Below the pieces are notes generated by a model that saw only the letters and a list, made by a program, of their open reading frames with translations, made no database searches and was not told where the DNA came from. Positions 12,948 through 64,000 of a stretch of 64,000 nucleotides of DNA are shown piece after piece (position 1 is the first letter of the stretch; each line of letters opens with the position of its first letter). The stretch is taken from positions 59,987 through 123,986 of the forward strand of contig DAOMOX010000001.1 of the NCBI GenBank assembly GCA_035444565.1, read 5' to 3'. The stretch comes from Candidatus Dojkabacteria bacterium (lineage in GTDB: Bacteria > Patescibacteriota > Dojkabacteria > B142 > OLB20). Made by a program: the position numbers and the translations under genes.

Positions 12948-13211
12948 ATGTTTTATATATACATAATTCAAAGCAAAAAGGATCATAAGTTGTATACTGG
13001 TTACACCAAAGACATTGATAAGAGAGTGAGTGACCATAATCTAGGTAAAGTGAAATCAACAAAGGCCAGAATACCTTTTGAGTTAGTTTATAAAGAAATA
13101 TTTAGAACCAAGGAAGAGGCAATCGATAGAGAAAAAGAATTAAAAACTGGTCAATGGAGGGAATTGATAAAAGAATTTATCAAAGATGGTGGCAATAGCT
13201 CAGTTGGTTAG
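12948..13211 (+). CDS. Small GIY-YIG nuclease superfamily protein (YhbQ/UPF0213-like)
   Basis: 'FYIYIIQSKKDHKLYTGYTKDIDKRVSDHN' is a canonical GIY-YIG module followed by a conserved Glu. The 3' end overlaps the first 24 nt of tRNA-His. Confidence 0.75.
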   Translation: MFYIYIIQSKKDHKLYTGYTKDIDKRVSDHNLGKVKSTKARIPFELVYKEIFRTKEEAIDREKELKTGQWRELIKEFIKDGGNSSVG

Positions 13212-13265
13212 AGCGCCTCTCTGTGGAAGAGGAGGTCGTGGGTTCGAGTCCCATTTGCCACCCCA
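13188..13265 (+). tRNA. tRNA-His (anticodon GTG) with genome-encoded G-1 and 3' CCA
   Basis: Manual fold. G-1 precedes acceptor GTGGCAA/TTGCCAC. D arm GCTC-AGTTGGTTA-GAGC. Anticodon stem CCTCT/AGAGG with loop cTGTGga. T arm GTGGG-TTCGAGT-CCCAT. Discriminator C73 then CCA. G-1:C73 is the tRNA-His identity element. Confidence 0.9.
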
Positions 13266-14714
13266 TGTAGGACGCTGGTTCATTTCCACTAATGTAGAGA
13301 AGGGTATTTTATAATCATAGTGCAGTTTTGCACCATCCCAGTTAGCGTTCGATAGTACAAGATTCACAATTTTCGATTTATCGGCGTTATTTTCTTCTCC
13401 TTCTTGTAAAAATAGTTCATGAGCCTCTTGTGAAAGTTCGACAATTTTGTTTGCAGTTGTAAAGAAATTCTTATCCGCTAAATCAATATTCTTTAGCTTT
13501 GTAGTAATCATTCTAATCTCATTAGAGTATTCAGCATACTTAACATCATAGAGGTCTTTAGATATCTTCTCATCAAGATATTCATCATACATTTTGGAAA
13601 GTCTATTCCTTAGTTTGATTTTTCTATCCTGGAGTTCTTTTATTAGATCTTCAGAATAACCAGCCCTATCATTGTTAGTTTTCTTAATTGTTTCTTTAAG
13701 CTCTAATGCTATTTGAGGCTTAATCTTTATTTGTTTAAGTGCCTCTGCTATCTGCTCTGTTAATATTTCTTCCCTAACATAGCTTACAGCGTGTTTTTTT
13801 CTGCCCTGACTACAGCTATAGTAGTGAAAGCCTTTATGTCTTTCGGGGACCATTGAACACCCACAGATGGAGCATTTTATCAATCCCCGATATATGAAAT
13901 TGATTTTACCCATGAGTTTAACAGGATTAATTAATCTATTGGACCTGATATCCTCTGCTTTCCTGAAGAGTTCTTCAGATATTATTTGAGGATAAACATG
14001 CTTGTATTTAATATTCTTTTTCTTGTATGTAGCAATACCTATGTAAAAGTCATCCATTAAAATTCTACCTATCTTACTGCTCACTAGCTTTACATTATCT
14101 TCTTTGAGGGATTGAACAATCTCTCTAATAGACATACCATCATATACATAAAGATTAAAAATCTTCTGAACTACCTTAGAGGTAAACTCATCTACTACAA
14201 TATTATTGGGAACGTTTTTGTATCCATAAGGGGCTTTACCGAGTGATAAACCCTTTGATATCCTTTCATTAATAACCTTCTTAACGTTATCAGAAACGGA
14301 TAGTGCATAGCTTTTAGCAAACATTACCCCCATATCCCACCTCAATAACTCATGGCTCCTGGAGTCCTGGTTAATAACTAGATTTTCTGCTATGAAATGG
14401 ACCTCTATTTTATTGGATTTTCGTAAATCATCGAGTGCTACACTATCTCCGAAGTTACGCATACCTCTATCAATGGTATCAAACACTAATGCTACAACGG
14501 AGTTGAGTTCATCAACACGTTTCAACATCTCTTTGAAGGTTTTACGTTCATGCCTTCTACTTGCAGTTTCTACAACTTGATAAATATCTTTAGGAGATTG
14601 TATGAAGAGGTCGTTTTTTTCAAGGTAGGAATATACCCTCTTGAGTTGTGAAGGGATGGAGAAATTATCGCTTTGGTCTGGAGTTGATACTCTAGTAAAT
14701 ACGAAAGCCCTCAA
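13200..14714 (-). CDS. Large serine recombinase (phage integrase)
   Basis: N-terminal resolvase catalytic domain 'FVFTRVSTPDQ'. Central recombinase domain. Zinc ribbon 'CSICGCSMVPERHKGFHYYSCSQ'. C-terminal coiled coil. The 3' end overlaps the complement of tRNA-His. Confidence 0.85.
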   Translation of the reverse strand: MRAFVFTRVSTPDQSDNFSIPSQLKRVYSYLEKNDLFIQSPKDIYQVVETASRRHERKTFKEMLKRVDELNSVVALVFDTIDRGMRNFGDSVALDDLRKSNKIEVHFIAENLVINQDSRSHELLRWDMGVMFAKSYALSVSDNVKKVINERISKGLSLGKAPYGYKNVPNNIVVDEFTSKVVQKIFNLYVYDGMSIREIVQSLKEDNVKLVSSKIGRILMDDFYIGIATYKKKNIKYKHVYPQIISEELFRKAEDIRSNRLINPVKLMGKINFIYRGLIKCSICGCSMVPERHKGFHYYSCSQGRKKHAVSYVREEILTEQIAEALKQIKIKPQIALELKETIKKTNNDRAGYSEDLIKELQDRKIKLRNRLSKMYDEYLDEKISKDLYDVKYAEYSNEIRMITTKLKNIDLADKNFFTTANKIVELSQEAHELFLQEGEENNADKSKIVNLVLSNANWDGAKLHYDYKIPFSTLVEMNQRPTWGGKWDSNPRPPLPQRGALTN

Positions 14715-20507: not shown

Positions 20508-23500
20508 GTGGCAGTAGTAATAACACAAACAGCCAATCCAGCAGGAGTTAACACATCCTCAAATGTAGCCACATACTCTAGCGTAGCCATTGGAGCTGCG
20601 GCAGCGAATAGAATAGTAGTAGTCTTGGTTGGCTCTGAATTAGCCTCAGCCTCGATAAACTCCGTAACGCTTGGTGGAAACGCCATGAGTGCTGGTACTC
20701 AGGGCAATTTTGGTGCAGTATACGCAAGAGCATTCTATTTAGCCTACCCAACAGGAACGACTGCCGACATCGTTGTTACTTACGGAGCAGGGGCAACAAG
20801 CACACAAAACCATATTGCAGTATATAGCGTAACTGGTGGGGTTTATTCTGCTACTGGAGCAGACCAGTCTAGCGATATGGACACAACCGATAGGCTAACT
20901 ACTGGTGCAATAACAATAGCCTCAGGTGGGGGGTTTATTGCAATTGCGGCAGGTGCTACTGATACTGCTGCCAAGACGTGGGCAAATGCTACTGAGGACC
21001 TTGACGTGGATGCGGGGGGTTTTAGGTTTACGACAGCTACTAGGACAACCGCTCTTACCGCTACTGCGGTTACGTGTACTGGTGGTACTAACGGAGAGGA
21101 TGGTGCATTATCTTATCTCCTCTTTACTGCAAATGTTTCCCCAACAGTTGCACTTAACAGTCCAGCAGATACTGCTACAATAACAGACACTACTCCCGAA
21201 TTGATATTCACAGGAACGGATACTGAGAGTAACGATATAAGGTATAACGTGCAGGTGGATACGGTTAATACGTTTGATAGCCTAGGTGGTGCTGAAGATG
21301 CCCTGTACCTAAATGATAATGGAAACCTAAACGCCTCACCTCTTTCAACTTATACCAACGGAATGTCTTTCTTTTGTTGGGTTCAATTAGAAACATTAAG
21401 TAGGTATCATTTAATATGGTCGAATGGTAGAGGTGGCGACTATGGGGAGGGGTATGAATTTTATATTACGTCTGGTGACAACTCTCTTATCATAGGGTTA
21501 TCCTATATTGGTGGTCATAGCTCTTCATTGTCCATAACAGATACAGATTGGCATTTTGTGGGTTTTACAAGAAATTCTGGTACGTGGACACTATATCTTG
21601 ATGGGTCGTCAGAGGTTGTTGGGACTGGAAACCCATACTCTATAAATGGTGCGAATTCCAAAAGTATGATAGGTGGTTACAATGATGCAGGGACACCTGT
21701 TAGTGAGTTCAAGGGTTCTATTGCTAGGGTTGGATATTGGGAAAGAGTTCTAAGTGGGGGGGAAATAGCAGGCCTTTACGCAGGTGCGTTAGTTTCAACG
21801 CTTTCCTCTAACTTGGTAATTGACTGCCAACTAGATGATAGTGCCAATTTTGGTGTTAATGATGGCTCTGCTGGGGACTTCACAGAAAGTGGTACTTTAA
21901 CAGAGGACACGCTTGGCTTTGATGCAGTAGGCGGTGGACCGTTAATTGATGCAGTCTCTGGTACAGATGCGGGGTTTCTGGACTCACCCGATGAAAGTGA
22001 TACAGACCCTTTCACCTCTGGAACTGCAGTTGCCTATACGGTTCAGTCGGCACTTGACCCCGATACTTATTATTGGAGGGTAAGAGGGCTTGACCCATCA
22101 GGTAGTAATTCGTATGGAGCATGGAGTTCTATTAGGAGCTTTACTATTACATCTGGAGAAACTGAAGTATCAATTACCAAAACCCTTGCATACAAAGTAC
22201 AACCATCAGTCTCTATTACTAAAACCATCGCTTATAGAATTAAAACGGATACTGCCATCACAAAGAATTTGGCTTATAGCATAGTAGATGAAATCTCAAT
22301 AACAAAAGGATTAACGTATGAAGTTATTGTAACCACAACGGAAACAATCCAAAAGGATGTTGACTACACAATTATTACCGATAGCTCAATTCAGAAAGGA
22401 TTAGAATACCAAGTTGTAACAAACGCACAAATACAGAAGGACCTGGATTATTTCATCAAGCTAGAAACATCTATTCAGAAGGATTTAGATTATACAATCC
22501 TTACCTCTGATAGTGTAGTAAAGGACCTGGAGTATATTATCATCATTACTGATAGTATAAACAAAGACCTGGACTATACAGTCCTTACGGAAGGATTAAT
22601 ACAGAAGAGTATGCTTTATGAGGTTGTGGTTACTGGAATTGAGAAGGTACAGGCAACGCTTGACTATACAGTAATTACAAGTACAACAATCCAAAAGGAC
22701 CTAGAGTATTTCATCACTACAGAAGGATTAATACAAAAAGACTTATCCTATAAAGTACAACCCTCAACAACAATAACAAAAGATTTAACTTATACAGTTG
22801 AATCTCAGCAGGATGTTACAAAAGACCTTGATTATCATATAGTAATTCCTAAACTTATACAGAAGGATGTAACTTACTTTATAAAAGGTTCTACAGGTAT
22901 TCAGAAAGATGCTGATTATTCGGTTATAACTACCATCGACCAGGACAAGGCATTAGATTATAGAGTCATAACTGAGGGTGATATACAAAAGGATGTAGAC
23001 TACTACATATCAATCACCACGAACGTAGAGAAAGATATCAATTATAACTTGCAAGTAAGTACAACTATTCAGAAGGGAGTTACCTACTCTATCGATGTCC
23101 CCTCAATAATAGTTCAGAAAGAACTTGACTATGCAATAGTAACAACAACAAGCACAACAACCGACCTTGATTATAATATTCTGCTTGAAAGCACTATTCA
23201 GAAAGATACTGATTATTCGGTTATGGGTAGTACAGCAATAACGAAAGGAATTGAGTATACAGTCATAGCACCACAATCAATTGAACAAGCCCTTCAGTAT
23301 ACAATCGCCATCACACCATCAGCTCTAGAGAAAGCACTTGAATATATCATTGTACAAAGGACCACTAAACAATATGAGTTGAGATATAGGGTAGATGCAC
23401 CTCATAGCATTTCTAAGGATTTAATGTATACTATCGGCGAAAAAATAGGGATATGGATAAAACATCCTGGAGAAAGTTCAGACTCATTCACAAAAGATGA

Positions 23501-30862: not shown

Positions 30863-33800
30863 CTATTTCTTACTTTTGTTTTTATAACGAGTTTTAGTCC
30901 TATCTTTAGACCACTCTGCAAAATCTCTAGGATAATACTTAGGGTTTTCCAAACCTTCAACATTAGTTAGTATTTTTGACCGTAATTTGGAAGCCTCCTC
31001 TTGATTCTTCTCAATATCAACTTCCCTAAACTCATCTAACAAGTCGTCTACATCGTCCGTAATTGCTTTTATCCTATATATTTCTTTGATTTCTGGTTCT
31101 GTAATGTTTTCGTACTCTCCCCTATGATTTTGAACCGAAGAATATTTTTTATCATTCTCGTCACGAGTGTTATAAAAGTCTGTAATTCTTCTATCAGACG
31201 TCAACCAATAATCTCTCTGGAAAGATGTTAAAGGATTCAAATTTTCGGGTTGACCCATCAGCATTTTACTTGCACGTCCGAATGTTCCTGTAACAAAATA
31301 GTCAATCTTAATTGGGCTGAGGTTCATCATTTCGCCCAATTTTTTAGCCAAAGGTGTTGTACCTTCATTATATTGTTCGGCATTTGGTCTGTTGGATAAT
31401 CCCTGATTAACTAGAGGTCTCACTTCTGGATACTCTTTTACATTAAAAATTACATGTGTTGTAGGTTTAAAGAATTGTGGGACCCATGCTAGTGCTGCCT
31501 TAGTAGGTTCTGCTAAATTAAACTGATCTGGAATCCACGAAGTAACTAAATCTATATACTCATCAGAGTCATACTTTGTGTCAAACATAGCTTCGGAAAC
31601 TATCATGTTTAGGACCGTAGCAGGGATTGTAATTGGAGTAGGAACCCTAAATCGCCACAATCCTTTTCCAGAAGGATTGGGGAAATATATAAAGTTTGCT
31701 AACTCCTCAGGTGCCAAACCTTTATACTGTTCTTTCTGATCGTCTGATGAGTTTCTAAATAAGTAATCTAATGAAGCTAGATAGGCTGCCATTAACACTA
31801 GACCTACAAACATTATGCGTTTTCTCCCACCAGGAGTTTTAGAAACTCTTGCAAGTTGATCCAATACTTGAAGACTTGCATTAAAGAACGGAAGTCCTCG
31901 TATATAGACCGCTCCAGTAATATCAGATGATGTACTTCCCCACACACCTGTGTGATGAAAAGGTGCCGTTACACGACCTGCTTCTTCTAATGCAACTACT
32001 TGAGATTTACCTGCTTTTCTAGCTGCAACATACTCAGCAGCCCTTGTAATAATCTCACTAGCAGAAGCTGGTTTCTGTAGAATATCAAGCGCCTTAGACC
32101 CAATTAAGGTGGCTTTATCTATAAGGCTTTTCTCTGATTTAATTTTCTCAAACAACTGACTTGGTGACATTTTTTGCCAACCCATGAAGGTTTGTCTTTC
32201 ACCCCCCATTACTAGGTATTCCTCATAATACTTTGACTCAATACTATTCTTGTTGATTTTTTGTTTAATATATGTACTAAAAGGACTATAGAGGGGAATG
32301 AATTTATTGTATGAGTTCACAGATGCAGTCACCTGGTCCATGAAAAAGTTGGTTATAGTAAATGGAACAAAAGCTCCAGTAGTACCTAAAGTGAACATCC
32401 TAGAAACTGCGAGATACAATTTACTGAACTTACCAATCGATTTATAATCAAGGATATCATCTATTATTGTTTTAACCTCTTTGTTAACCAAAATAGGTTG
32501 TCTCTTGTAATTCAGTCTTGCCATTATTATGTTTGGATCTTTCTCTTGCGGATATGTTACCTTCTCGGAGCTTTTATCATAGAGAATTTTTAATTCTTGT
32601 TCCTGGAAGATATTCGGAATTGCCGCTGAACTACCAAGACCCCCTATGCGGTTATATACAACCTGTCTCATAGACTTCCTGACTATTTCCGAATGGTTAA
32701 TCATGGAGGAGTAAATAGGATTAATGATAGTTCTCTCTGATCCTGTTCTTCTCATAAGAGATGAAATCTTGGTCTTTTTAACCTTACTAGTTGAGGGGAT
32801 GTCTGTTTCTCCAACCAACTCATCATAAAACTGTCTTTTGAATGATGCGTAACCTTGGGTGTTGTTAAGTTTATCGAAAGTTGCTTTGTCTATTAGTTGG
32901 ACTTCTGGGTTGTGTAATAATTCTAAATCAGCCTTAACTAGTGAATCAAACATTTTCTCCTCATATTTATATGCTTCAGAGTTCTGTTTATAGGCATCGT
33001 CTACAACCTGTCGTGAGAAACCATCATTATCAAGTACAGACTTAAACTCTTCATATTCTTTTTCTAGTTTTTGTAATAACCTATTGGTCTCTCTTTTAAA
33101 GCGCTCAAGGTTCATGGCGGTATACTCGGGCTTACCATTTTTGATGGTACTAGGGATTATTTCAATCCCATAATCTTCCTCTAACATGGACTTTAAATCC
33201 CTGTTAAATCTAGATAACTTATTAGGCTCGGTTATTTTATTTAGTGCCTTAACAATCACCTCTAGTTGACCTTTTCTGTTCCCTAATAGATCTAACTCTT
33301 TGTACAGAAAGTGCTGTCTTCTAGCTACTAAATAATATCCAAAACTATCAGCTCTGTTATTCTTTTCTAATCTGTCTATTAAAGTCTTCCAATTATATTC
33401 ATATTTCTTTTGAAAACCCGATTCTAAGTCTGTAAATGCCCAATACCCACGTTTAGTAGAGATATTATTTCCAACTATTCCATTTACTGCCGAATATGCC
33501 CTTGCCCATAAAGATGGATCAATCGACTTATTATCAATCCCCGCTTTCTTGGCTATAACCTCTAATGGATACACCTTATCTGCTAATTGTTGCCTCAACC
33601 TTTCTTGTGAGGTGAAGAAGCTCTTGCGATCTATTCCAGTATCATCACTAGAAACTCTCGTTCCAATCTTATCTAACGACTCCAGACCTTGATAATCTGC
33701 TACTAATTGGTTTAAATCTTCTAACATTTTCCCAATTGTGGGTTCATAGTATTCTCCCTTTGGTTTAAGAAACTCATTAACTAGTAAAGGATATTCTGTC

Positions 33801-36800
33801 TCTGTAGTCGTAGGAAACTCGACATACTTCTGTAGTAATGTTGCAAACCCTTCTAATTGCTTTAATCTTGGATTATGCCCTGCCTCAGCTCCTGGATAAT
33901 ATTGTAGATAAATCTTTGATAGTTCTTTGTTTAATTCTGGCTTACTTAGATGTACTGTAATTTTGTATTTTGCATCTAAATAATGGGTGAATTCATGAGC
34001 AAACACCGATAAACTATTAATTGAATCGACACGAATGTTTTTTGTAGAAGGATAATACACGCCTAATGCGCCCCTAGGAAGGTATTTCTCACCAACCGTG
34101 AAGTCTTTATCGTATGATTTAAGCAGACTCTGAATCCTCTGGTATATTTTAAACTCCCTAGTCCCTGGCTTGGGCGATTCCCTTAATTCATACTCATCAA
34201 TTGAGGTGGTCCCTTTAGATTTTAGACTAGATATGGTGGCATATCCTTGTCCCCCTCGTACTTTCTCCCCTCTCTGTTTGCCTGTCTCCTTGCCTCTAGT
34301 TCCCTCTGTGAATTCTCTCTCCCTATTCTCAACGACTCCACCAGTTCGGGTGGAAGAGGAGGTTCTTGATTTCTCCTGAATATTTTGTTTAGTAGTTCTT
34401 TCATTGTTGTTATTACTATCTATGCTAATATTTTTTTGCCCTCCCTTTTCATTTTCTCTAGATACTTCCTTCTTCTCTCCTTGCCCTTTTCGATTCCTTC
34501 GTTCATCGCCTTGATTATGTAATTCTCCCTGCCTTCCCTGTCTTCCCAAGAGGGCATCGAGTTGTTTTTTTGTAATTCTTCCTGATTCATATAATTGTTC
34601 TGCATAACTAGCTATCTGATTAATTAAAGTTTTTTTATTGAAGGGGATTTCCTTTATATATTTAACGTCTAGCCTATGAACTCCTTGCATATTCTCCCCA
34701 TTATTTGTAAACATAATGTTTACATTTTCATTTTTCCCGTAATCTTCAAATAATTTTAAGATTACCATCCTTGCTTTTCTATGAGAATTAATGTGATTAC
34801 TTATAGTGACAGTTCTTGGAGTTCCACTTTCATACCTTGCCATAACTCCATCCTTAAATGCCACAAAAGGTTCTCTGTATACATAAAGGATATCGGTCTT
34901 ATAACCTAAGTCTATGGCTTTATCAATATAGCTTTTAGCCCTATTATAATCAGATAGCGTAGAATCATAAGTAATAGTATAATCATTTTTCAATCGTGAT
35001 TTTGAGGTTGTTTTGCCCGATCCTGTACCTCCTGCTAACATAAGTATGCTTTTGTCTTGTTCTTTACTTTTCTCTACTAGTAGTTTATTTAATACTTTAT
35101 CTGCTACTATTCCACTTGCTCTACCATAATCAACTGCATTGGTACGTTTATAACCATCGAATAAAAGTTTTGCACTATCGGAACTAACGTTATTTCCGAA
35201 CCTTTGAATATAGTTATCAACAATCTCGTCGGGGTTTTCCGATAATTGCTCAAAAGACTTTTTTTCGTCTTCGGATCGGAATTTCTCAGGAACTTCTATT
35301 TTCCCAACGTTATCTTCTTTGGGTGTCGACAATAAATTACCATTGGCTTGAACCCTTTTCTCATCTTCGGTTTCGACTGCGATACCCTCTGTTACTTCTC
35401 CTTCTGCCTGGTCCTCTCTTATTTTAGTGGTGATTATAGGGATTTCATTTATCTTTAGTTCTCCATATGCTTTTAAGCGATGATTTCCATCTTCTACCTC
35501 AAAGGTATTCGGTCCTGTAGGTCTAGCAACAATTGGTACTCTTTTACCGCTTTTAATCTCCTCAAGCGCCCTTTGCCCCCTTTCACTATCAAGAGATACA
35601 TTTTCACTTGATTTTATTTGTGTTCTATCTATTGTTCGCCTTTCAACATTATCAGGTCCGCCTATGTTATCAATCGCCTCTTTGAAAGTTCCTTTGCCTA
35701 TAAACTCATCCTCAAAATAACCCGATTCAGTATCATTGTATTCCTGGAATATATCTGATTCAGGGGTAACATCATTTCTCAAACTCTCTGTTACCTCTTG
35801 TACGTCATTCTCGACTGGACCACCCTCTAACTCATTCAATTCATTGATATCATAGTTCCCATCTTCAACACCTTCTGTTATCCCATCCCTAGCTATAAGA
35901 TCATCCATCCCGGCTATTTCATCTGACACACCTTCATCCACACTTATCTCATCCTCTTCAATACCTGCCTGATTTTCGTTCTGTAATAGTTCTATTTCTT
36001 CTCTTATTACTGAAGGTAAACTATCAGGAGGTATATTCTCTTCTTCATCAATGGGGATCTCGATAGGTCCAAATTCGGGTCTTTTTTCTCTCCACTTATA
36101 CCCGGCATTAACAGTTACCTCTGGAATCTTTACCAATCCCCCATACATACCAATCCCTATAATCTCCATCATTAATCTTTGCGCACCTTCCGGTGTAAGA
36201 AGAGAATGATATTGCCTATCTTCAATCTTGGCTTGTACCGGCTCATTGATTTCTTCTTCTAATATCTCCATTAAAAGCCCATCAAATCCACTCTTCTTGA
36301 GATACCTTGAGAATAAATCAATTGATTTGTTATTACTCTTCGAGATTGCCTTACCAATCAACGCCTTCTGCATGAACTTCTCCGGATTCTCTGTAATCAA
36401 TCCCATACGTTTAACAATTCCTTTATACGCTGCACTACCACCCTTTGTTGTTAAATCTCCGACACGTTCTGAAAAATGTTCAGCCCATGAAGATAGAAAT
36501 GCTTTCCTAAAAGCAACGTTAGGATCATCTCCCTTACTTGCTTCCTTCAGTAAAGCCTCTCCATCTTCACTCATCATTATTTCGTATTCGGGTAACGCAT
36601 ACCCGGCTGCCTTCTCTGATAGTGCCGGGAAATTGATTCCTGTTTGAACTGCTGATTCTGCTAACTCGCCTGTCAATTTCTGCATAAATGGTCCTGCGAT
36701 TCTCTTGGGTAGTATCTTTGTAACAGCCGGACCTATTTTAGTGGCACCTAAGGCACCTTTGGCTGCACCCTTTGTAATCAGAAATTCATATCCGTACCTA

Positions 36801-37696
36801 GCCATATCCGGCATCATCTCTCCGACTGCATAAGGAATACCCCTATCTATTCTAGAATCTATCATCTTGGCTGACATTAGATTCAATGCGGCAATTTCAG
36901 TCTTACTTAATACATCACCTCCATGATATTTCTCGGTTATTGCTTTGATATCTACCAATTCCCTTTCACCCTCTTCTAACTTCTCTAGTGCTTCTTTCGT
37001 GAGCTTATCCCTATCACTTTTCAATGTGTTATATCCAAAGGGTAGAAAACGGAGATCAAGGATTGATTCTTTTAATCCATCAAAGAATCCGGATTTAACA
37101 TCAGACCTATTAATAAACTTGTTGTACATTTCCGCCTCTTCACTAATCAACTGAAGATACTCATGATCTTCTTTCCTCTTCTTTCGTTTCTCTGGATCAA
37201 TTGTAGGAATAAAACCAGCCCATCTTTCCTCAAAGGTCATATTCTGGAACTCTTGATTAAGGAAATTCATCCTCTCTAGTACATAAGGACTCTTTGCTTC
37301 ATACACTTCCGGAGCATTATGATCTATCACCTTCTTCTGGTCGTTATACATCTTCTTTGCATACTTGACTCTATCCTTTGCTCCTTTAATGCTTAGAGGA
37401 TCCTTTAGAAGGACCTTCTTTGGATCCTTCTTGATCGCACTCTTTAGTTTGGAGAAAAAGCCCTCTTCAGGCTCCTCTTTTTTAGTTGAAGTTGATATGG
37501 GAGTTGTATCGGGAGCGGTCCATTTCTTAGGAGTTGTTGGCTCTACTGCCTTGTTATAAGTGCCATCTAAAATAGCATCAAATTGTTTCCTATCGAAACT
37601 GACTTGACGCATTTCTTCATCATCATCATTGTCATTTGTTTGAACTCCGGTAGATAATATCCTATCAAAGTCCTCCCTTGAGAATATCTTAGACAT
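30863..37696 (-). CDS. Giant polyvalent virion protein (2277 aa) with ParB-like nuclease, zeta-toxin-like P-loop kinase, low-complexity R/G/E linker, HExxH metallopeptidase and a long C-terminal region with a TM segment
   Basis: ParB nuclease (ParBc) 'KRVPIVARPTGPNTFEVEDGNHRLKA'. P-loop 'ILMLAGGTGSGKTTSKSRL' with a zeta/PNK-like downstream region. Linker 'RQGRQGELHNQGDERRNRKGQGEKK...'. Peptidase 'SVFAHEFTHYLD'. TM 'IMFVGLVLMAAYLASLDYL'. Confidence 0.7.
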   Translation of the reverse strand: MSKIFSREDFDRILSTGVQTNDNDDDEEMRQVSFDRKQFDAILDGTYNKAVEPTTPKKWTAPDTTPISTSTKKEEPEEGFFSKLKSAIKKDPKKVLLKDPLSIKGAKDRVKYAKKMYNDQKKVIDHNAPEVYEAKSPYVLERMNFLNQEFQNMTFEERWAGFIPTIDPEKRKKRKEDHEYLQLISEEAEMYNKFINRSDVKSGFFDGLKESILDLRFLPFGYNTLKSDRDKLTKEALEKLEEGERELVDIKAITEKYHGGDVLSKTEIAALNLMSAKMIDSRIDRGIPYAVGEMMPDMARYGYEFLITKGAAKGALGATKIGPAVTKILPKRIAGPFMQKLTGELAESAVQTGINFPALSEKAAGYALPEYEIMMSEDGEALLKEASKGDDPNVAFRKAFLSSWAEHFSERVGDLTTKGGSAAYKGIVKRMGLITENPEKFMQKALIGKAISKSNNKSIDLFSRYLKKSGFDGLLMEILEEEINEPVQAKIEDRQYHSLLTPEGAQRLMMEIIGIGMYGGLVKIPEVTVNAGYKWREKRPEFGPIEIPIDEEENIPPDSLPSVIREEIELLQNENQAGIEEDEISVDEGVSDEIAGMDDLIARDGITEGVEDGNYDINELNELEGGPVENDVQEVTESLRNDVTPESDIFQEYNDTESGYFEDEFIGKGTFKEAIDNIGGPDNVERRTIDRTQIKSSENVSLDSERGQRALEEIKSGKRVPIVARPTGPNTFEVEDGNHRLKAYGELKINEIPIITTKIREDQAEGEVTEGIAVETEDEKRVQANGNLLSTPKEDNVGKIEVPEKFRSEDEKKSFEQLSENPDEIVDNYIQRFGNNVSSDSAKLLFDGYKRTNAVDYGRASGIVADKVLNKLLVEKSKEQDKSILMLAGGTGSGKTTSKSRLKNDYTITYDSTLSDYNRAKSYIDKAIDLGYKTDILYVYREPFVAFKDGVMARYESGTPRTVTISNHINSHRKARMVILKLFEDYGKNENVNIMFTNNGENMQGVHRLDVKYIKEIPFNKKTLINQIASYAEQLYESGRITKKQLDALLGRQGRQGELHNQGDERRNRKGQGEKKEVSRENEKGGQKNISIDSNNNNERTTKQNIQEKSRTSSSTRTGGVVENREREFTEGTRGKETGKQRGEKVRGGQGYATISSLKSKGTTSIDEYELRESPKPGTREFKIYQRIQSLLKSYDKDFTVGEKYLPRGALGVYYPSTKNIRVDSINSLSVFAHEFTHYLDAKYKITVHLSKPELNKELSKIYLQYYPGAEAGHNPRLKQLEGFATLLQKYVEFPTTTETEYPLLVNEFLKPKGEYYEPTIGKMLEDLNQLVADYQGLESLDKIGTRVSSDDTGIDRKSFFTSQERLRQQLADKVYPLEVIAKKAGIDNKSIDPSLWARAYSAVNGIVGNNISTKRGYWAFTDLESGFQKKYEYNWKTLIDRLEKNNRADSFGYYLVARRQHFLYKELDLLGNRKGQLEVIVKALNKITEPNKLSRFNRDLKSMLEEDYGIEIIPSTIKNGKPEYTAMNLERFKRETNRLLQKLEKEYEEFKSVLDNDGFSRQVVDDAYKQNSEAYKYEEKMFDSLVKADLELLHNPEVQLIDKATFDKLNNTQGYASFKRQFYDELVGETDIPSTSKVKKTKISSLMRRTGSERTIINPIYSSMINHSEIVRKSMRQVVYNRIGGLGSSAAIPNIFQEQELKILYDKSSEKVTYPQEKDPNIIMARLNYKRQPILVNKEVKTIIDDILDYKSIGKFSKLYLAVSRMFTLGTTGAFVPFTITNFFMDQVTASVNSYNKFIPLYSPFSTYIKQKINKNSIESKYYEEYLVMGGERQTFMGWQKMSPSQLFEKIKSEKSLIDKATLIGSKALDILQKPASASEIITRAAEYVAARKAGKSQVVALEEAGRVTAPFHHTGVWGSTSSDITGAVYIRGLPFFNASLQVLDQLARVSKTPGGRKRIMFVGLVLMAAYLASLDYLFRNSSDDQKEQYKGLAPEELANFIYFPNPSGKGLWRFRVPTPITIPATVLNMIVSEAMFDTKYDSDEYIDLVTSWIPDQFNLAEPTKAALAWVPQFFKPTTHVIFNVKEYPEVRPLVNQGLSNRPNAEQYNEGTTPLAKKLGEMMNLSPIKIDYFVTGTFGRASKMLMGQPENLNPLTSFQRDYWLTSDRRITDFYNTRDENDKKYSSVQNHRGEYENITEPEIKEIYRIKAITDDVDDLLDEFREVDIEKNQEEASKLRSKILTNVEGLENPKYYPRDFAEWSKDRTKTRYKNKSKK

Positions 37697-53359: not shown

Positions 53360-53437
53360 CCATCTTTATGTTAAAGAGAAAAATGTGAAGTCCTGATTTA
53401 AGCTCATTATTCCAGTTCTAAACACGTCCCATAAGGC

Positions 53438-53515
53438 ACCCCAGTGTTTCTGAGCTTGCGAAGAAATACACTGGGTAAGGTCTGCCGTAGCTTTAGCGTA
53501 GGCATGACCACCCCA
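53438..53515 (+). repeat. 78-bp direct repeat, copy 1 (75/78 identical to 58818-58895); contains a hairpin CCAGTGT-N22-ACACTGG
   Basis: 'accccagtgtttctgagcttgcgaagaaatacactgggtaaggtctgccgtagctttagcgtaggcatgaccacccca'. Confidence 0.85.
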
Positions 53516-57918: not shown

Positions 57919-58056
57919 ATATGAATCAGTATAAACACTTTGTTCATGAACATGAAGACCTTGCTAGATACCATCATAAAATGAACAGTCAGTTAATGTA
58001 AAATTGACTAATTAAAGCAATAATATTAAAATCCTAATATATGAATCCTTCTCCAA

Positions 58057-58365
58057 ATGACTGATAAAGTAGTTAAACTCTCAATAGATAATAGACTAAT
58101 AATATTGGTTGTTTTATTAGTTGCAGGAATCTTTTCTCTATTTGTAATGTACGAAAAGATTAATGACCAACAAAAGCAGTCCAATTTCGAAGAATGCCAA
58201 GCCTCAGCATACAAGAGGTTCGGGGAACGACTTCAGTCACTTTGTGGAAAAAAAGATCTCTCAGAATGTCAAGCCTCAGAAATATCTACAGACTTAGCAG
58301 ATCACTACACTAAAATGTATGATGATGAGAATGATGATTGTTTGAAAATTATGCTTTATGATTAA
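58057..58365 (+). CDS. small secreted or membrane-anchored Cys-containing protein (paralog of 58372-58674)
   Basis: N-terminal TM or signal, then 'FEECQASAY...LCGKKDLSECQASE'. Confidence 0.45.
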   Translation: MTDKVVKLSIDNRLIILVVLLVAGIFSLFVMYEKINDQQKQSNFEECQASAYKRFGERLQSLCGKKDLSECQASEISTDLADHYTKMYDDENDDCLKIMLYD

Positions 58366-58371
58366 TTTGCT

Positions 58372-58674
58372 ATGAAAAGGTCCTATGCTTTAATCGCACT
58401 CATATTTACAAGTTTAATTATAATCATGCTTGGTATCCTAGTTGGATACCCAATTTATAAGGACCAATCAAGAAAAGAGCTTGTTAGTAATTGTAACGAG
58501 TTTCGAGATTTCTCACTTAGAGAGAAGCTTAGCGAAGTGTGCAAAGACGAGGGTTTTAGAAACACTGACGAATGTAAACTTCCAGATGATACGTTTAAAG
58601 CTATAAATAATTACGCGGACATACAAGAGGAAGCATGCATCAAACAAGACTGGCCTTCCAAATATGATGAATAG
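58372..58674 (+). CDS. small secreted or membrane-anchored Cys-containing protein (paralog of 58057-58365)
   Basis: N-terminal TM, then 'SNCNEFRDFSLREKLSEVCKDEGFRNTDECKLPDD'. Confidence 0.45.
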   Translation: MKRSYALIALIFTSLIIIMLGILVGYPIYKDQSRKELVSNCNEFRDFSLREKLSEVCKDEGFRNTDECKLPDDTFKAINNYADIQEEACIKQDWPSKYDE

Positions 58675-58794
58675 TATTAGTTTATAGTATATAGTTTCCA
58701 ATACCCATGTAATGATATTGAGAACTACTAAATTGTCGACTCTGAAAGCAGTGAATTTATATTATTAATGTTGAAGTTAAAATCAATTTTAAGG

Positions 58795-58895
58795 TTTAGC
58801 AACGAGTCCAACAAGTGACCCCAGTGTTTCTGAGCTTGCGAAGAAATACACTGGGTAAGGTCTGCCGTAGCTTCAGCGAAGGCATGGCCACCCCA
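58795..58895 (+). repeat. Boundary element: 'ggtttagcaacgagtccaacaag' (22/23 identical to 29701-29723) fused to copy 2 of the 78-bp repeat (58818-58895); 'cgagtccaacaagtgacccca' resembles the tRNA-His 3' end
   Basis: Direct comparison with 29701-29723, 53438-53515, 57155-57176 and the tRNA 3' sequence 'cgagtcccatttgccacccca' (16/21). Confidence 0.75.
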
Positions 58896-59636: not shown

Positions 59637-60260
59637 CTAGTGTTTTATTGCTTGTATCAAACAAAGAGGATTTTCAGATTTTGGGTCTGAAGTGATATTC
59701 ATACTTAAAAGGTTTATCTCCATGCGTTGAGCTTCCTGACTAACCCTATTTTGAAATTCTGAAGCCCAATTTACTGGAAAAACAAAGTAGGCTCTTCCAT
59801 CTACGGCTAATACTCTTTTCAGTTCTAACAAAGACCCTATAGTTAAATCCATTAAATCGCCTTCTGAAGGACAATTAATTCCATAGGGAGGATTAACAAT
59901 CGCCAACTTAAAGGAAGATGCTGCAAGGGGTAGTTTTGTAGCATCCCATGCAAAAAACCTCTGATCTGCTCCTGCATAACCATGTTTTGCTCTTAATCTT
60001 TCTAACCCTTCAATTGGATTAGGGTAATCTGTAGCATGCCTTATATCTCCAGAAAAAGTTAAGATCCCTAATGAATCAAAAAAAATAGGCATGGACCCTG
60101 GACCTCCGAAAGGGATTAATACTTTGTCCCCTTCATGATAACCTCCTTGATCCAATACTTTTTGCCAAATAATAAATAATTTTTCAGTCCCCAAACAGAA
60201 ATTACGAAACTCTTCAGGCACACCTAATTTATTAAAGTTTACGCCACATGATTCACACAT
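59637..60260 (-). CDS. SAM-dependent methyltransferase with an NPPY motif and an N-terminal CxxC
   Basis: Motif I 'VLIPFGGPGS', motif IV 'AIVNPPYG', N-terminal 'CESCG'. 207 aa. Confidence 0.55.
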   Translation of the reverse strand: MCESCGVNFNKLGVPEEFRNFCLGTEKLFIIWQKVLDQGGYHEGDKVLIPFGGPGSMPIFFDSLGILTFSGDIRHATDYPNPIEGLERLRAKHGYAGADQRFFAWDATKLPLAASSFKLAIVNPPYGINCPSEGDLMDLTIGSLLELKRVLAVDGRAYFVFPVNWASEFQNRVSQEAQRMEINLLSMNITSDPKSENPLCLIQAIKH

Positions 60261-60525
60261 TATTAGATTTATAAAAAAATGCCAAACAGCAGTATATCAC
60301 AATTATATACCCTATTGTTATTTAATGACTACGAGGTAGAAAGTTCGTAATGTTATGCCAAATCAAGCATATGTTATGGGTAGTAGTTTGGAAAGACTTT
60401 CGTTGATTTAGAAATTATAGAAATAGATCCATATCCACCCAATACCAAAATTGTATATTTGTTTTTACATATAATCAATATATATGTTACTATGTAATCC
60501 AGATAGATATACTTGATATATAACA

Positions 60526-63500
60526 GTGAGACTCATTACAAACTATGGAGGGGAATACTCCCCTCCCTTTTTTGCACCAAGTAATTCAGTGCAATTAGAC
60601 TTAAAATATGCCGACCTACACTCCTATATAACTGGAGTAGTCAATGTTGTTGAAAATAATAGCAGTAACCAAAGGGAAAAATTAGGTCTAGGTTCGATTT
60701 GGGGGAATAAATCTTCTCTTCGAGATTTTGATTTATCTAATAATCAAGTAGGATTACGAGGGAGTTATAAATTAGGTAAGAACTTAGACTCTGATGAATC
60801 TGATACTGGATTGTTACCATACTATCAGAAAGATGGAAGGTTAGACGCTTTTCCTGGTCAAAAACCCACCCATAAAGGAGCGAGATATTATATTTCTGTA
60901 GACTCAAGTGTTCCCACACAGTGGAAGTTAGAAGTCATAAAAGAAGATGTTAATGATGCAATAGCGCAACTTTCAGAAGGATATGAAGATGAAAACTATC
61001 TACAATATCTCGGAGTGATTGACCATTTACGTAACCATATAAGCACTTTATATCATTCATACACATATAAGGATAGGTATGAATTAACTGAAAATGCAGA
61101 GTACGTAGAAAGGAGAGAGAGGATTTTCAATTCTATGGTTAATATTACCCAGGAGTACTATTTAACTTTGCTTGGCCATAAGTCAGGAGTTGAAATTAAT
61201 TCAGCAGAAATACTTTCTATTGTTGATGATACTACAAACGATTTATTGGGACGAGATGATGTGGTTTTCAAGATGCCAGAAATTGAAAACTCTCTGAAAG
61301 TACTAGCATTTGCAGACTTGGTTACAGACAAGCATCCTGAAATTGATGTGGTTGTTGGTGCTCCATCGGGAGGAAGCGAAACTGCAATAGTTACAGATCT
61401 CCTATATAAAATTAAAAATCCCAATAGAGAAAGACAATTGGAGTTACTTCCAATTTCTACACACTCTGCATCAGTTAAGAGGGATGACGAAGAAACCACC
61501 AAAGACGACATTGAAGATTACATAAAATCAAATGGGATTGAATTCCAAGGAAAGAAAGTATTATTTGTCGACGACAACAGCAATACTGGACGTACTTTGG
61601 CACTTGCAGAAAATATAATTATTAATTCAGGTGCAGAAAATGTTATTTGTAGAGTAGTAGAGGCAGATCCGATAAGAATTCAATTAAAGTCAAGTCCAGA
61701 CAACGTTCAACTTGTGCCTAATCCGATGGTGAACGAATGTTCAGTTGGGTTTGTACCTATAACGAGAGGTGCGGGTCTACTATCTCCAGATCGTCAAATG
61801 CTTAAAATAGAAAGACAGGGTGTCCTACGCAGAAATTATAATAGAACTACAAATGCGGAAGATTCTCCAATGGAGCGAGATGAGGTGGATTCGAAAACTC
61901 AGGAAAGTAGAACGGAAGCAGAAATAAAAGTATGTGGAGTTCACAACATCTATGATGCCCAAGCATGTTTGCTCTCTGGGGTTAGAAATTTCGGAATACA
62001 TTTAACTTACACCCCAGAAGAGTACAAGAGAAAAGCACTAGGAATCGATGATCCGAGAGTAGCTATAAAGATGAATAAAGTACACGATTTTTACAGTGAC
62101 CGGGATTTACCCTTACCATGGCTCGAATTAAATCCTATAAGAGACATGATAGATTATCTTGACGAAAGTGAAATAGAAACTAACCTATTCCTACTGATGA
62201 GACCTAAAAGTTCAGACGAAGCTATAAGAATATTAAGAAGAGTTATTCCAAGTGGAAGTCAGCAAAAAGTAACCCTCCAGTTACAAGGTGATTATGATGC
62301 CGAATTGGTCAATTCCATCAGGGAAGAATTAAAAGCTGGATTTGAAAATGAAATTTCAATCGTACAGATGGTTGCCCTGGATGAAGATGATTTAGATCGA
62401 AAAATTTTTGAATTGAATTCTGATACAAATGTGGATGCGGTTCTAGTTGATTCAAAGAAAAAAGGTGGAACTGGGGAGCAAGGGGATATCGAACAACTAG
62501 TAAGAGTTCTAGGAGGAATCTCAAAGAGAAAATATTTGGCTGGAGGGCTTTCTAGTTCAAATATAAATCAAACGTTAGAAATACTGAGGAATAACGGAAT
62601 CCAAGTTGAGGGATTGGACTTAGAGTCGTCTGTTGAATTTGACGAAACCATGATAAAAGTTAAATCGGATGGAAGTATAGTAAAAAGACGTAAAGATCCT
62701 GAGAAAATATCACGATTTGTTGATGAAGTTGAATTAATTGAATATATGGAAATCACAATTCAAGACACCCAATTCAAAACGGTTTTAAATCAAGCTTGGG
62801 AATTTGCTAAAAACGAAACTGGTTATTTCAATCTTGATGCAGCAGCAGAAGGATTTTGGATCTATGCTTCCCAGGAGGGTTTACTAACCGACATTGCATT
62901 ATCGAATAAGACTGCATTCATCAATCAATTTAGAATCGCCGCTTCTACATACCCTGCTATACCAGGAATCGTGCGCGAGAAGTTAAGCAGAGATGAAGAA
63001 AGTGATGCTTTTCAGGAGAAAAAGCCTCAAGCATGGCTGAATGCTGGTGTTGGAAACTTTCTTAGTCAAATCGCTAATGCTGGTGATGTTTCATCAATAA
63101 TTTGGACTGCTGGTGATTCTGTAGTTGAGGACTACCCAAGGATAGGTAATTACGCAATGACCGAAGAACAACGACTTCGTTACGAATTATCTGGTTTGGA
63201 GAGACTTTCGAATCAAATATTTGCCGAACATACAGGCATAGAATTTATAGCACATCCTGACAAGCTGGGCGTTGTCGGAAAAAGAATCGAGGAGTGGAGC
63301 CAACACGGAACGATATATGTAATGGATAACGACTTGGAGAATCTCAGAAGGTTTAATGAAATTTGTAACAAACATGGCGTAACGAATGTACAGATAATAC
63401 ACATTGATGGTCCTTTAGATGGATATTCTGATAGAATCACAAATTTGGTACCTGGAGATCTAGTTATCATGGATATGGACGACGTTTTACTAAATGGCGA

Positions 63501-63570
63501 GTTCAGGAAATTCCACCAGCCCAGAAATATATTGAAACACTTAACCGATTTGGGCTACTACCATGAATGA
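60526..63570 (+). CDS. Multidomain protein fusing a type I phosphoribosyltransferase domain and a TrpF-like phosphoribosylanthranilate-isomerase domain, with unknown N- and C-terminal regions
   Basis: PRTase 'GKKVLFVDDNSNTGRTLALAE', preceded by 'VVVGAPSGGSETAIVT'. TrpF-like 'EIKVCGVHNIYDAQACLLSGVRNFGIHLTY' and 'VLVDSKKKGGTGEQGDIEQL...KYLAGGLSSSNINQTLE'. Confidence 0.6.
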   Translation: MRLITNYGGEYSPPFFAPSNSVQLDLKYADLHSYITGVVNVVENNSSNQREKLGLGSIWGNKSSLRDFDLSNNQVGLRGSYKLGKNLDSDESDTGLLPYYQKDGRLDAFPGQKPTHKGARYYISVDSSVPTQWKLEVIKEDVNDAIAQLSEGYEDENYLQYLGVIDHLRNHISTLYHSYTYKDRYELTENAEYVERRERIFNSMVNITQEYYLTLLGHKSGVEINSAEILSIVDDTTNDLLGRDDVVFKMPEIENSLKVLAFADLVTDKHPEIDVVVGAPSGGSETAIVTDLLYKIKNPNRERQLELLPISTHSASVKRDDEETTKDDIEDYIKSNGIEFQGKKVLFVDDNSNTGRTLALAENIIINSGAENVICRVVEADPIRIQLKSSPDNVQLVPNPMVNECSVGFVPITRGAGLLSPDRQMLKIERQGVLRRNYNRTTNAEDSPMERDEVDSKTQESRTEAEIKVCGVHNIYDAQACLLSGVRNFGIHLTYTPEEYKRKALGIDDPRVAIKMNKVHDFYSDRDLPLPWLELNPIRDMIDYLDESEIETNLFLLMRPKSSDEAIRILRRVIPSGSQQKVTLQLQGDYDAELVNSIREELKAGFENEISIVQMVALDEDDLDRKIFELNSDTNVDAVLVDSKKKGGTGEQGDIEQLVRVLGGISKRKYLAGGLSSSNINQTLEILRNNGIQVEGLDLESSVEFDETMIKVKSDGSIVKRRKDPEKISRFVDEVELIEYMEITIQDTQFKTVLNQAWEFAKNETGYFNLDAAAEGFWIYASQEGLLTDIALSNKTAFINQFRIAASTYPAIPGIVREKLSRDEESDAFQEKKPQAWLNAGVGNFLSQIANAGDVSSIIWTAGDSVVEDYPRIGNYAMTEEQRLRYELSGLERLSNQIFAEHTGIEFIAHPDKLGVVGKRIEEWSQHGTIYVMDNDLENLRRFNEICNKHGVTNVQIIHIDGPLDGYSDRITNLVPGDLVIMDMDDVLLNGEFRKFHQPRNILKHLTDLGYYHE

Positions 63571-64000
63571 ACTTATAAGTTATTTCGGTCCCAAGCATAT
63601 GCCCGAAGTTGTTAAAGATAGTTACAATGTTGCCTATTTACAACCGGGAGATACATACTCTCTGGAGGAATTTGAAGGTAGAAGAGTGAACGTTTTAGAA
63701 ACTCCATCTTTTGCTCTACCTGATGCATTATTACTTAGAATTGCGGGTTTGTTGTTATATCCCGGTAGACATCCTCAAAATCATCATGATTTGGATGTAC
63801 TATCAAACGAGGGAATTCGTACTGCTTATTTTGAAGATGATACACCCTGGAATCGAGCAGTAGTAAACTATTTATTAAAAGCTGTTGGTAGTTTTCTTGC
63901 TGGAGACCTTCAAACTTTTGCTAATTTTAAGACAAGGAAGGATATAAAATTAAGAGAGAATAATTCCGATTTGAAAATCGGTGTGATTGGGACCGGTAGC
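63563..64000 (+). CDS. hypothetical protein, 3'-truncated by the window end
   Basis: Open frame 'MNELISYFGPKHMPEVVKDSYNVAYLQPGD...' with an ATGAATGA overlap onto the previous stop. Runs off the window. Confidence 0.4.
   Translation, partial: MNELISYFGPKHMPEVVKDSYNVAYLQPGDTYSLEEFEGRRVNVLETPSFALPDALLLRIAGLLLYPGRHPQNHHDLDVLSNEGIRTAYFEDDTPWNRAVVNYLLKAVGSFLAGDLQTFANFKTRKDIKLRENNSDLKIGVIGTGS

Follow-up and report, generated by a model that had tools for sequence, protein, structure and literature searches.

A phosphoribosyltransferase fused to a TrpF-like barrel and an apparently circularly permuted HAD domain in a Candidatus Dojkabacteria bacterium: a candidate route to N-ribityl- or N-ribulosyl-amines

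The stretch of DNA analysed here (64,000 nucleotides (nt) from a Candidatus Dojkabacteria bacterium, assembly GCA_035444565.1, contig DAOMOX010000001.1, positions 59,987 to 123,986; hereafter ‘the window’) is bacterial chromosome with a prophage, and near its right end it holds an open reading frame (ORF) of 1014 amino acids (aa), with a GTG start and a TGA stop, which is the subject of this report. The 1014-aa protein is the product of a real single gene that joins a helical region, a transferase dependent on phosphoribosyl pyrophosphate (PRPP), a TrpF-type isomerase and a rearranged phosphatase. An earlier note, made from the letters of the window alone, had placed a type I phosphoribosyltransferase (PRTase) and a TrpF-like barrel in one polypeptide here, with ~250 unassigned residues before them and ~300 after; Pfam, family profiles and single ORFs in relatives bear this out, and both lengths were accurate (aa 1-262 and aa 743-1014). 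Throughout, L-numbers denote loci or contigs carrying family members and P-numbers denote cluster representatives from a profile search. The features of the target ORF and of the gene that follows it are:

60526..63570, + strand: whole ORF, 1014 aa; its N-terminus, MRLITN..., matches the start of the L003 orthologue, MRFIIQ...
60526..61311, + strand: N-terminal region, aa 1-262 (conservation; AlphaFold2 (AF2) model)
61312..61755, + strand: type I PRTase domain, aa 263-410 (Pfam PF00156, family profile)
within the PRTase domain, + strand: pyrophosphate (PPi) loop VVVGAPSGGSE, aa 275-285; LLPISTHSAS, aa 307-316; ExDPxR, aa 378-384
61558-61596, + strand: PRPP loop VLFVDDNSNTGRT, aa 345-357
61756..61911, + strand: linker, aa 411-462, beginning with PITRG; the L003 split falls here
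61912..62751, + strand: TrpF/PRAI-like (beta/alpha)8 barrel, aa 463-742 (Pfam PF00697, Foldseek, family profile)
61933-61935, + strand: catalytic Cys470 in IKVCGVHN
62449-62451, + strand: Asp642 in VLVDS
within the barrel, + strand: motifs GGTG (aa 647-650), LAGGLS (aa 671-676) and GLDLESSVE (aa 696-704)
62752..63567, + strand: HAD-fold phosphatase-like domain, apparently circularly permuted, aa 743-1014
63463-63492, + strand: HAD motif I, VIMD983MD985DVLL, on the last strand, ~30 aa from the C-terminus
63563..64000, + strand: 5' part (145 codons) of a 2-hydroxyacid-dehydrogenase-like gene, which runs off the window; the full gene in L005 is 334 aa

The closest genome is ‘MAG: bacterium isolate DTUPAT2’ (MAG, metagenome-assembled genome), whose 248-kb contig (L005) carries a single ORF of identical architecture at 97% identity to the target; a single-sequence scan of the genome collection returned only this near-identical MAG. 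P0001 is a full-length orthologue at 93% identity, and six distant representatives (P0005, P0006, P0007, P0012, P0014 and P0016) are full length at 25-35% identity. Because the same ORF recurs in L005, in P0001 and in all six distant representatives, the fusion is not a frameshift or assembly artefact, a possibility that the earlier note had raised. In L003, the target is split at the junction between PRTase and barrel into adjacent genes, one of 407 aa (N-terminal domain and PRTase) and one of 603 aa (barrel and C-terminal domain), each ~53-54% identical to the matching part of the target (53% over aa 1-406), and the two halves are therefore separable modules.

The N-terminal region had no match in Pfam, NCBIfam, PHROG or PDB sequences. 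Its first ~120 aa are poorly conserved and unmodelled in the target, and aa ~117-262 are helical (AF2 model 1, predicted local distance difference test (pLDDT) 50-85) and conserved family-wide, the conserved residues among 133-146 representatives being R/K117, G118, Y121, D166, K/R169, E/D183, Y193, Y212, E252 and P256. The domain that follows was recognized by the Pfam model Pribosyltran (PF00156) at aa 271-390 (29.3 bits against a gathering cut-off of 26.3, E 6.4e-7), and a 37-sequence family profile searched against PDB found the purine PRTase 1vdm as its best match (E 1.1e-8), followed by HGPRT, PyrR, PurF and Prs. A direct PDB sequence search with the target gave only weak HGPRT and PyrR matches around the PRPP loop, and NCBIfam gave sub-threshold TrpF, Prs, PyrR, HGPRT and APRT matches only. 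The PRPP loop itself is intact: it has the hydrophobic strand, the two acidic residues and the xxxTGxT that define such a loop, and aligns with VVIVDDVSDTGKTL of 1vdm. Conservation in the PRTase domain is high at D350 (0.99), N351 (0.94), G355 (0.95), T357 (0.92), S311 (0.97) and D381 (0.96), with 143-144 sequences covering D350, G355 and T357, and the active-site-like motifs GxPSGG, PxSxHS and ExDPxR are conserved as well. In the whole-protein model the PRTase region reaches a pLDDT of ~50-75 and shows the expected beta-alpha alternation, and a fold search with the whole protein returned barrel matches. Overall, we read the first module of the enzyme as a family-specific helical N-domain packed onto a purine-PRTase-like type I phosphoribosyltransferase. 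The linker after it starts with P411, I412, T413, R414 and G415, all invariant in A1, and beyond PITRG it is low-confidence or disordered (pLDDT <50 over aa 378-459).

The barrel was matched by the Pfam model PRAI (PF00697) at aa 585-705 (39.5 bits against a cut-off of 22.7, E 6.6e-10). The match covers only model positions 76-178 of 193, since an insertion of ~55 aa after strand beta2 leaves just the C-terminal half of the barrel visible to Pfam; the N-terminal half was recovered by the family profile, and the two halves of the TrpF signature that the earlier note had recognized are thus both present, with the insertion between them. The barrel is modelled at pLDDT 75-90 and ends in a C-terminal beta-hairpin with invariant R722 and K723, and its best Foldseek match is the TrpF structure 5lhf_A (T. 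kodakaraensis phosphoribosylanthranilate isomerase; template modelling (TM) score 0.76 of the target, E 1.2e-6). When a 13-sequence barrel profile was searched against PDB, only TrpF chains were retrieved at E<0.01, with no HisA or HisF chain among the matches, and among solved structures the barrel was assigned to no other TIM-barrel family, as the earlier note had considered it might be. In the profile alignment to T. maritima TrpF (1lbm/1nsj), KiCgvHN falls on VKICGITN (Cys7) and iLlDsk on ILLDTK (Asp126), and the phosphate-site motifs GG[ST]G, aGGL and D.EssvE also align. In TrpF, Cys7 is the general base and Asp126 the general acid. Since the equivalent pair (C470 and D642) and the phosphate site are invariant across 13 diverse members, the natural reading is that the PRTase makes an N-phosphoribosylamine and the barrel isomerises it in an Amadori-type reaction; the earlier note had proposed this coupling from its sequence motifs, and its analogy with a TrpD-TrpF pair in which the transferase has a different fold is apt as a description of how the enzyme would work. 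Some 15 further polar residues are invariant within the clade (including H473, N474, H492, Y495, Y500, E534, Q585, Q587, Y590, Q614 and D633), which suggests a polar heterocyclic substrate and not anthranilate. Consistent scores for a true TrpF were not obtained from the NCBIfam TrpF equivalogs (best 42.2 and 36.5 bits against cut-offs of 380 and 215), and no trp gene was found at 11 distinct loci (the window, L001/L002, L003, L004, L005, L006, L007, L008, L009, L012 and L013); trpA, B, C and E, whose presence elsewhere in the genome the earlier note had proposed to check, stand beside none of them.

The C-terminal domain has a HAD Rossmannoid core with a cap and contains all four HAD motifs (I, DxDx[T/V]; II, S/T; III, K; IV, an acidic pair). 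In contrast to the canonical order I, II, III, IV, the cap helices are followed by motif II (IIWT861AGD), motif III (AHPDK913), motif IV (YVMD934ND936) and only then motif I, which, unlike in the canonical HAD phosphatases 2p11, 3ddh and HDHD3 (3k1z), lies on the C-terminal strand after motifs II-IV. Conservation across 12 sequences is 0.92 for D983 and 1.00 for D985 (with V987 also conserved), 0.92 for T861, 1.00 for K913 and 0.83 for D934, which is accompanied by D936. The HAD-domain structure 9mhs was matched by the native profile in two swapped pieces, below threshold, and in hhalign comparisons with the canonical HAD domains of other family members the aligned columns rose from 19 in the native order to 203 when the last strand was moved to the front, with motifs I-IV and the cap in register and a probability of only 20%. 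Because of the swapped match and this rise, the domain is probably a circular permutant. The HAD fold itself we regard as very likely, with phosphatase activity predicted. The re-permuted hidden Markov model found no HAD match in PDB, Foldseek of the HAD model against PDB returned nothing significant, no Pfam HAD-clan model matched the target, and Pfam on 11 domain sequences gave only NIF (2 members, E 0.07) and DUF2608 (1 member, E 2.4e-5). No description of a permuted HAD was found in the searchable literature.

The gene that follows the fusion is coupled to it: the ATG of the dehydrogenase overlaps the last codons and the stop of the target by 8 nt, and the same 8-nt overlap is seen in L003, whose dehydrogenase is 50% identical to the part in the window. 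The L005 orthologue was matched by Pfam 2-Hacid_dh_C (PF02826; 66.3 bits against a cut-off of 25.1), and the catalytic His is kept (LTYHSAY aligns with ITPHSAF of 2yq4). In 2-hydroxyacid dehydrogenases the Arg of NxARG binds the substrate carboxylate. This Arg is replaced in all four coupled dehydrogenases (SVSGGG in L005, NVSNAG in L003, SVSAAG in L006 and SVSAGG in L012), and it is kept in the unlinked L001 paralogue (NTARGA) and in 2yq4 and 2dbq (CARG/IARG); its loss fits a substrate other than a 2-oxo-acid. The loci fall into two operon types. In type A (window/L005, L003, L006 and L012) the fusion gene is followed by the overlapping 2-Hacid_dh gene and a gene for a conserved ~200-aa protein, and a P-loop kinase-like gene is adjacent. 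In type B (L007 and L013) an opposite-strand NDT-like gene precedes the series fusion, Ham1, GT2, SDR, guanylate kinase and AAA_33 kinase. A reductase gene is present in both types, 2-Hacid_dh in every type A locus and SDR in both of type B. Further neighbours include Maf (L006), Nudix (L005), Ham1 (L007 and L013), dCTP/dCMP deaminases (L001 and L004) and an adenosine deaminase with a pyrophosphatase (L010).

An exhaustive profile search found 306 representatives of the family at E<=1e-3 and 183 at E<=1e-10. The conserved family core is the N-domain with the PRTase, ~450 aa when alone, and it and its partner modules occur in these architectures:

core with C-terminal NADAR: 42 representatives
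N-terminal canonical HAD with core: 8 representatives
N-extension of ~150 aa, of unknown kind, with core: 16 representatives
core and barrel, no HAD: P0003, P0009, P0011, P0013 and P0018
core, barrel and permuted HAD (the target's type): P0005, P0006, P0007, P0012, P0014 and P0016
core, barrel, permuted HAD and kinase-like tail: P0012 and P0016
core and permuted HAD, no barrel: P0017 and P0027
stand-alone barrels: P0049, P0058 and P0143
stand-alone permuted HAD: P0081

The YbiA/NADAR N-glycosidase acts in the context of the riboflavin pathway, and the NADAR and HAD fusions of the core point to N-ribosylamine phosphate chemistry across the family. NADAR proteins have been described as N-glycosidases of ribosylamino-pyrimidine phosphates and ADP-ribose derivatives (PMC9503650). 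Immediately upstream of the barrel-less members P0017 and P0004 lie SIS and PRK/uridine-kinase-family genes (L008 1948-3756; L001 8165-9999), fused in L008 into one 602-aa protein; as a speculation, these may be a non-orthologous replacement of the isomerase together with a kinase. No description of the family of N-domain and PRTase, or of a PRTase-NADAR fusion, was found in the literature. The architecture, the family, the Arg-less coupled dehydrogenase and the permuted HAD all appear to be undescribed, each catalytic fold being known.

Given these domain identities, the conservation of the catalytic residues, the fusion and the operon coupling, we infer the following order of steps, chemistry and substrate. 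The PRTase would move phosphoribosyl from PRPP to the amino group of an acceptor, the most plausible candidate being an exocyclic amine on a heterocycle of purine or pyrimidine type, giving an N-(5-phosphoribosyl)amine; we propose this product because it is the simplest account of the fusion partners (barrel, HAD and NADAR) and of the constant reductase. For the barrel to isomerise such a product, its nitrogen would have to be an exocyclic or secondary amine. The barrel, with Cys470 as base and Asp642 as acid, would then carry out an Amadori rearrangement to a 1-amino-1-deoxy-ribulose 5-phosphate derivative. The coupled Arg-less dehydrogenase-like enzyme would reduce the C2' ketone to give an N-(5-phosphoribityl)amine, a 2'-ketone being the sort of substrate to expect for a dehydrogenase freed from the need to bind a carboxylate, and the HAD domain would take off the 5'-phosphate. 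The net conversion would be from an amine and PRPP to an N-ribityl-amine (or N-ribulosyl-amine). A base of purine or pyrimidine type is favoured by the resemblance of the PRTase domain to purine PRTases, by the polar pocket of the barrel and by the neighbouring genes of nucleotide metabolism, and the modularity of the system (the L003 split, the stand-alone barrels and HAD, the partial fusions) matches a pathway. Of the two-step pathway that the earlier note had suggested, the coupling of PRTase and isomerase is supported, and the number of steps is not: the C-terminal HAD-fold domain and the coupled reductase gene make more than two, and likely four. An aromatic or heterocyclic amine, the substrate class that the earlier note suggested, is likewise putative. 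That a four-module enzyme and its coupled reductase run all four steps in this uncultivated bacterium is the account we prefer, and we hold it tentatively, at slightly less than an even chance.

Several observations weigh against this account. The N-terminal ~260 aa are the most family-defining part of the protein and are without an assigned fold or role. The PF00156 score of the target is marginal, with family members at 19-32 bits, and none of the NCBIfam equivalog cut-offs for HGPRT, APRT, OPRT, UPRT/PyrR, PurF, Prs or ComF was reached by the target or by the 37 family members. The PRTase fold also occurs in PRPP synthetases and in regulators like PyrR. Ketoreduction is consistent with a dehydrogenase that has lost the Arg, but is not proved by it. 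The neighbours are mostly nucleotide-metabolism enzymes that the four-step scheme does not require, and the scheme may miss something. Finally, a link to riboflavin (flavokinase and riboflavin synthase genes nearby) was seen at one NADAR-type locus only, L010, and riboflavin genes did not recur at the other loci, including the NADAR-type L014 and L015. We rejected a riboflavin-specific role because the L010 neighbourhood did not recur, and keep riboflavin synthesis as an analogy only.

The proposed scheme can be set beside several known systems. The nearest is TrpD with TrpF, in which PRPP-dependent N-ribosylation of an arylamine is likewise followed by Amadori rearrangement in a (beta/alpha)8 barrel, TrpF being the best structural and profile match of the target barrel. 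However, the target transferase has a type I PRTase fold with a helical N-domain instead of the type III fold of TrpD; its barrel differs by the ~55-aa insertion, the C-terminal hairpin, other invariant pocket residues and the failed equivalog cut-offs; and its fused phosphatase and coupled reductase have no counterpart in the Trp pathway, of which there is no gene context either. Steps of riboflavin synthesis (RibD/Rib7 and the HAD 5-amino-6-ribitylaminouracil-5'-phosphate phosphatases) achieve the same net chemistry as the proposed isomerisation, reduction and dephosphorylation, whereas in the target the ribosylamine would come from PRPP and a free amine instead of GTP, and the reduction would proceed through an Amadori product and a 2-Hacid_dh or SDR ketoreductase instead of a RibD-type reductase. 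HisG-HisI-HisA resembles the scheme in that a purine nucleotide is phosphoribosylated from PRPP and an Amadori rearrangement then takes place in a related barrel that binds phosphate. It differs in the catalytic residues, which in HisA are two Asp instead of Cys and Asp, and in the transferase, HisG being a PRTase of type IV. Bcs3 (8a0c) and 7shg have HAD-type phosphatase domains fused to PRPP-using transferases, without an Amadori isomerase. In tubercidin synthesis TubE, TubD and TubG act by PRPP-dependent transfer, an NAD(P)H reductase and 5'-phosphate removal (PMC6112128), the same logic as the target scheme, and the differences are that no Amadori isomerase takes part and that other transferase and phosphatase families are used (Nudix in the Tub pathway). 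No sequence relationship of the target to the Tub or Bcs3/7shg enzymes was detected.

Four other explanations were weighed. The PRTase could serve nucleotide or base salvage by making a ring-N nucleoside monophosphate (NMP), with the barrel, reductase and HAD domain processing sugar phosphates or nucleotides (ribose phosphate supply or recycling, or conversion of NMP to nucleoside) and not one ribosylamine in sequence, and with the kinases, Ham1, Maf and Nudix completing a salvage and house-cleaning network. The likeness of the PRTase domain to purine/6-oxopurine PRTases and PyrR, the kinase, Ham1, Maf, Nudix, NDT-like, deaminase and pyrophosphatase genes among the neighbours, and the kinase-like tail on P0012 and P0016 all agree with salvage, but a ring-N nucleotide is incapable of an Amadori reaction, whereas the barrel keeps the TrpF-specific Cys/Asp pair for Amadori chemistry on N-aryl ribosylamines and matched TrpF alone among solved structures, and the strict coupling to an Arg-less reductase would be left unexplained; we consider salvage unlikely. 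Less likely still is a specialised-metabolite or cell-envelope pathway, in which the product, reduced and dephosphorylated, would be passed to glycosyltransferases, as in PRPP-dependent routes to nucleoside antibiotics or ribofuranose glycans. The chemistry would overlap with that of our preferred scheme and only the fate of the product would differ, but the conserved block of the type A operons, that of the window included, contains no glycosyltransferase, there are no core natural-product enzymes nearby, and the spread of the family through small, streamlined-looking genomes argues for a housekeeping role.

An unconventional tryptophan biosynthesis, with the type I PRTase replacing TrpD and the barrel acting as a true TrpF on phosphoribosyl-anthranilate, would account for the Pfam PRAI score above cut-off, the conserved Cys/Asp pair and phosphate motifs, and the JGI annotation of the homologue P0003 as phosphoribosylanthranilate isomerase. 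It is nonetheless very improbable: the NCBIfam TrpF equivalogs, with cut-offs of 172-380 bits, gave 36-42 bits, no trpA, B, C, D, E or G adjoins any of the 11 loci, and the barrel carries its insertion and its many clade-specific invariant polar residues. In addition, a fused 5'-phosphatase would destroy 1-(o-carboxyphenylamino)-1-deoxyribulose 5-phosphate (CdRP), whose phosphate TrpC needs, and the region after beta2, which in T. maritima TrpF holds the Arg that binds the anthranilate carboxylate, appears by eye to read GIHLTY. Equally remote is a phage or defence PRTase effector like the retron, ShosTA or PsyrTA toxins, carried as prophage cargo. The target does lie ~7 kb beyond the prophage, near NERD and methyltransferase genes, and PADLOC gave weak matches to PsyrT and ShosT (E 0.007-0.009); both of these, however, are sub-threshold and reflect generic PRPP-loop similarity, with no stretch passing on its own, so that membership of a defence system was rejected. 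A phage origin was likewise rejected, since searches of 50,697 GenBank phages, of PHROGs and of IMG/VR contigs gave no relatives and the target with its flank from 53437 onward is common to a related strain whose upstream DNA differs; the orthologues, moreover, stand in ordinary chromosomal contexts and in conserved metabolic operons.

If the four-step scheme is right, Amadori catalysis of the TrpF kind would have found a use beyond the synthesis of amino acids, tied to a different PRPP transferase, a reductase and a phosphatase, making a compact four-step route to ribityl- or ribulosyl-amines. The substrate of the core family (the 183 representatives at E<=1e-10), which is annotated no further than ‘phosphoribosyltransferase domain’, would then explain a recurrent metabolism in uncultivated, probably host-dependent bacteria, and the C-terminal domain would be a natural circular permutant of HAD, of interest for protein evolution and for annotation, as standard HAD models miss it. 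It is possible, though doubtful, that the system provides a PRPP route from a free base to N-ribityl or N-ribulosyl amino-heterocycles, either as a salvage-type alternative to GTP-cyclohydrolase/RibD or as the source of a new nucleoside-like metabolite, and that it includes the first natural permuted HAD phosphatase and a new widespread family of N-domain and PRTase.

Upstream of the target, an AT-rich intergenic region of 265 bp (60261..60525, no strand assigned) separates it from a divergent RMKL/UPF0020-like methyltransferase gene (59637-60260, - strand). It contains promoter-like hexamers, e.g. TTTACA-18-TACTAT at 60464-60493 (+), which are no more numerous than in shuffles, so that it is no more than a plausible promoter region. 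A strong terminator-like hairpin, GGAGGGGAATACTCCCCTCC then CTTTTTTG, was found at 60547-60575 (+), 22 nt inside the target ORF (codons 8-17), where shuffles of the region predict 0.1 such sites; it may act as an attenuator or may have arisen by chance from the GGEYSPP codons.

The ~200-aa partner of the type A operons (L005 12046-12645; L003 12663-13262; L012 14162-14788), a 199-aa protein, is 74% identical between L005 and L003 and matches L012 at E 1e-22; neither Pfam nor PDB gave a match to it. It is reminiscent of Ham1/ITPase in its invariant motifs ILxATxNxDKFN and VGxDDG, and a true Ham1 stands at that place in type B, but hhalign, at a probability of <1%, does not support its homology to Ham1/Maf-type proteins. 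The P-loop kinase-like genes are conserved across L003, L005 and L006 (E 4e-17). Rosetta-stone links of the 199-aa partner to the alternative C-terminus of P0004, and of the P-loop neighbour to the tail of P0012, were rejected after negative BLAST searches; the P-loop neighbour has a weak P-loop match to the tail of P0016 only. In L003, a Cas12a-type protein (REC1, RuvC_1 and NUC domains) and an AbiEii-like gene lie ~9 kb downstream of the split gene (20989-21676).

Elsewhere in the window, an F-type ATP synthase operon lies at 3.7-9.1 kb, and a prophage extends from 13.2 to ~53.4 kb, with phage genes (an intein-containing ORF, lectin-like tail proteins, capsid, SU10-type portal, replication protein O, RecT and YopX) up to ~51 kb. 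To the earlier note the genome had otherwise looked metabolically reduced; the window looks gene-poor for metabolism because these ~40 kb, two-thirds of it, are prophage. Collinearity with the related MAG begins only at 53437, which places the target in DNA conserved between strains, with a strain-specific prophage on its left. The boundary of the prophage is approximate; no att-type direct repeat with the tRNA-His region exceeded 14 nt, and no tRNA lies upstream in DTUPAT2. The marked features of the prophage are:

13189-13265: tRNA-His (GTG), abutting the large serine recombinase gene
13200-14714, - strand: large serine recombinase, 504 aa, marking the left end of the ~40-kb prophage
17426-19873, + strand: 815-aa ORF with weak intein-splicing and LAGLIDADG homing-endonuclease matches (E ~3e-4 to 6e-4)
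30863-37696, - strand: giant 2277-aa ORF whose sole annotation is a faint ParB-like PHROG match at aa 715-764 (E 0.002)

The matches of the 815-aa ORF suggest an intein-interrupted phage gene, and GC content and skew are shifted over 34-40 kb.

A strain-variable cassette lies between the NERD nuclease gene and the second copy of a repeat (window 57934-58767, L005 5246-6239): in the window it holds two small membrane-protein-like ORFs (58057-58365 and 58372-58674), in DTUPAT2 an unrelated 185-aa ORF. The repeat, a near-identical direct repeat of ~76 nt, occurs at 53438-53515 and 58818-58893 of the window and at 749-824 and 6294-6371 of L005, each copy directly beyond the 3' end of a minus-strand gene, where a block in common with DTUPAT2 has its left edge, and next to strain-variable DNA. 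It has no Rfam match, and its fold consists of two hairpins (z -2 to -2.9). On the minus strand the same frame is open in both copies (..WGGHA[YF]A[KE]ATADLTQCISSQAQKHWG..), and the repeat may be the conserved start of two small paralogous ORFs.

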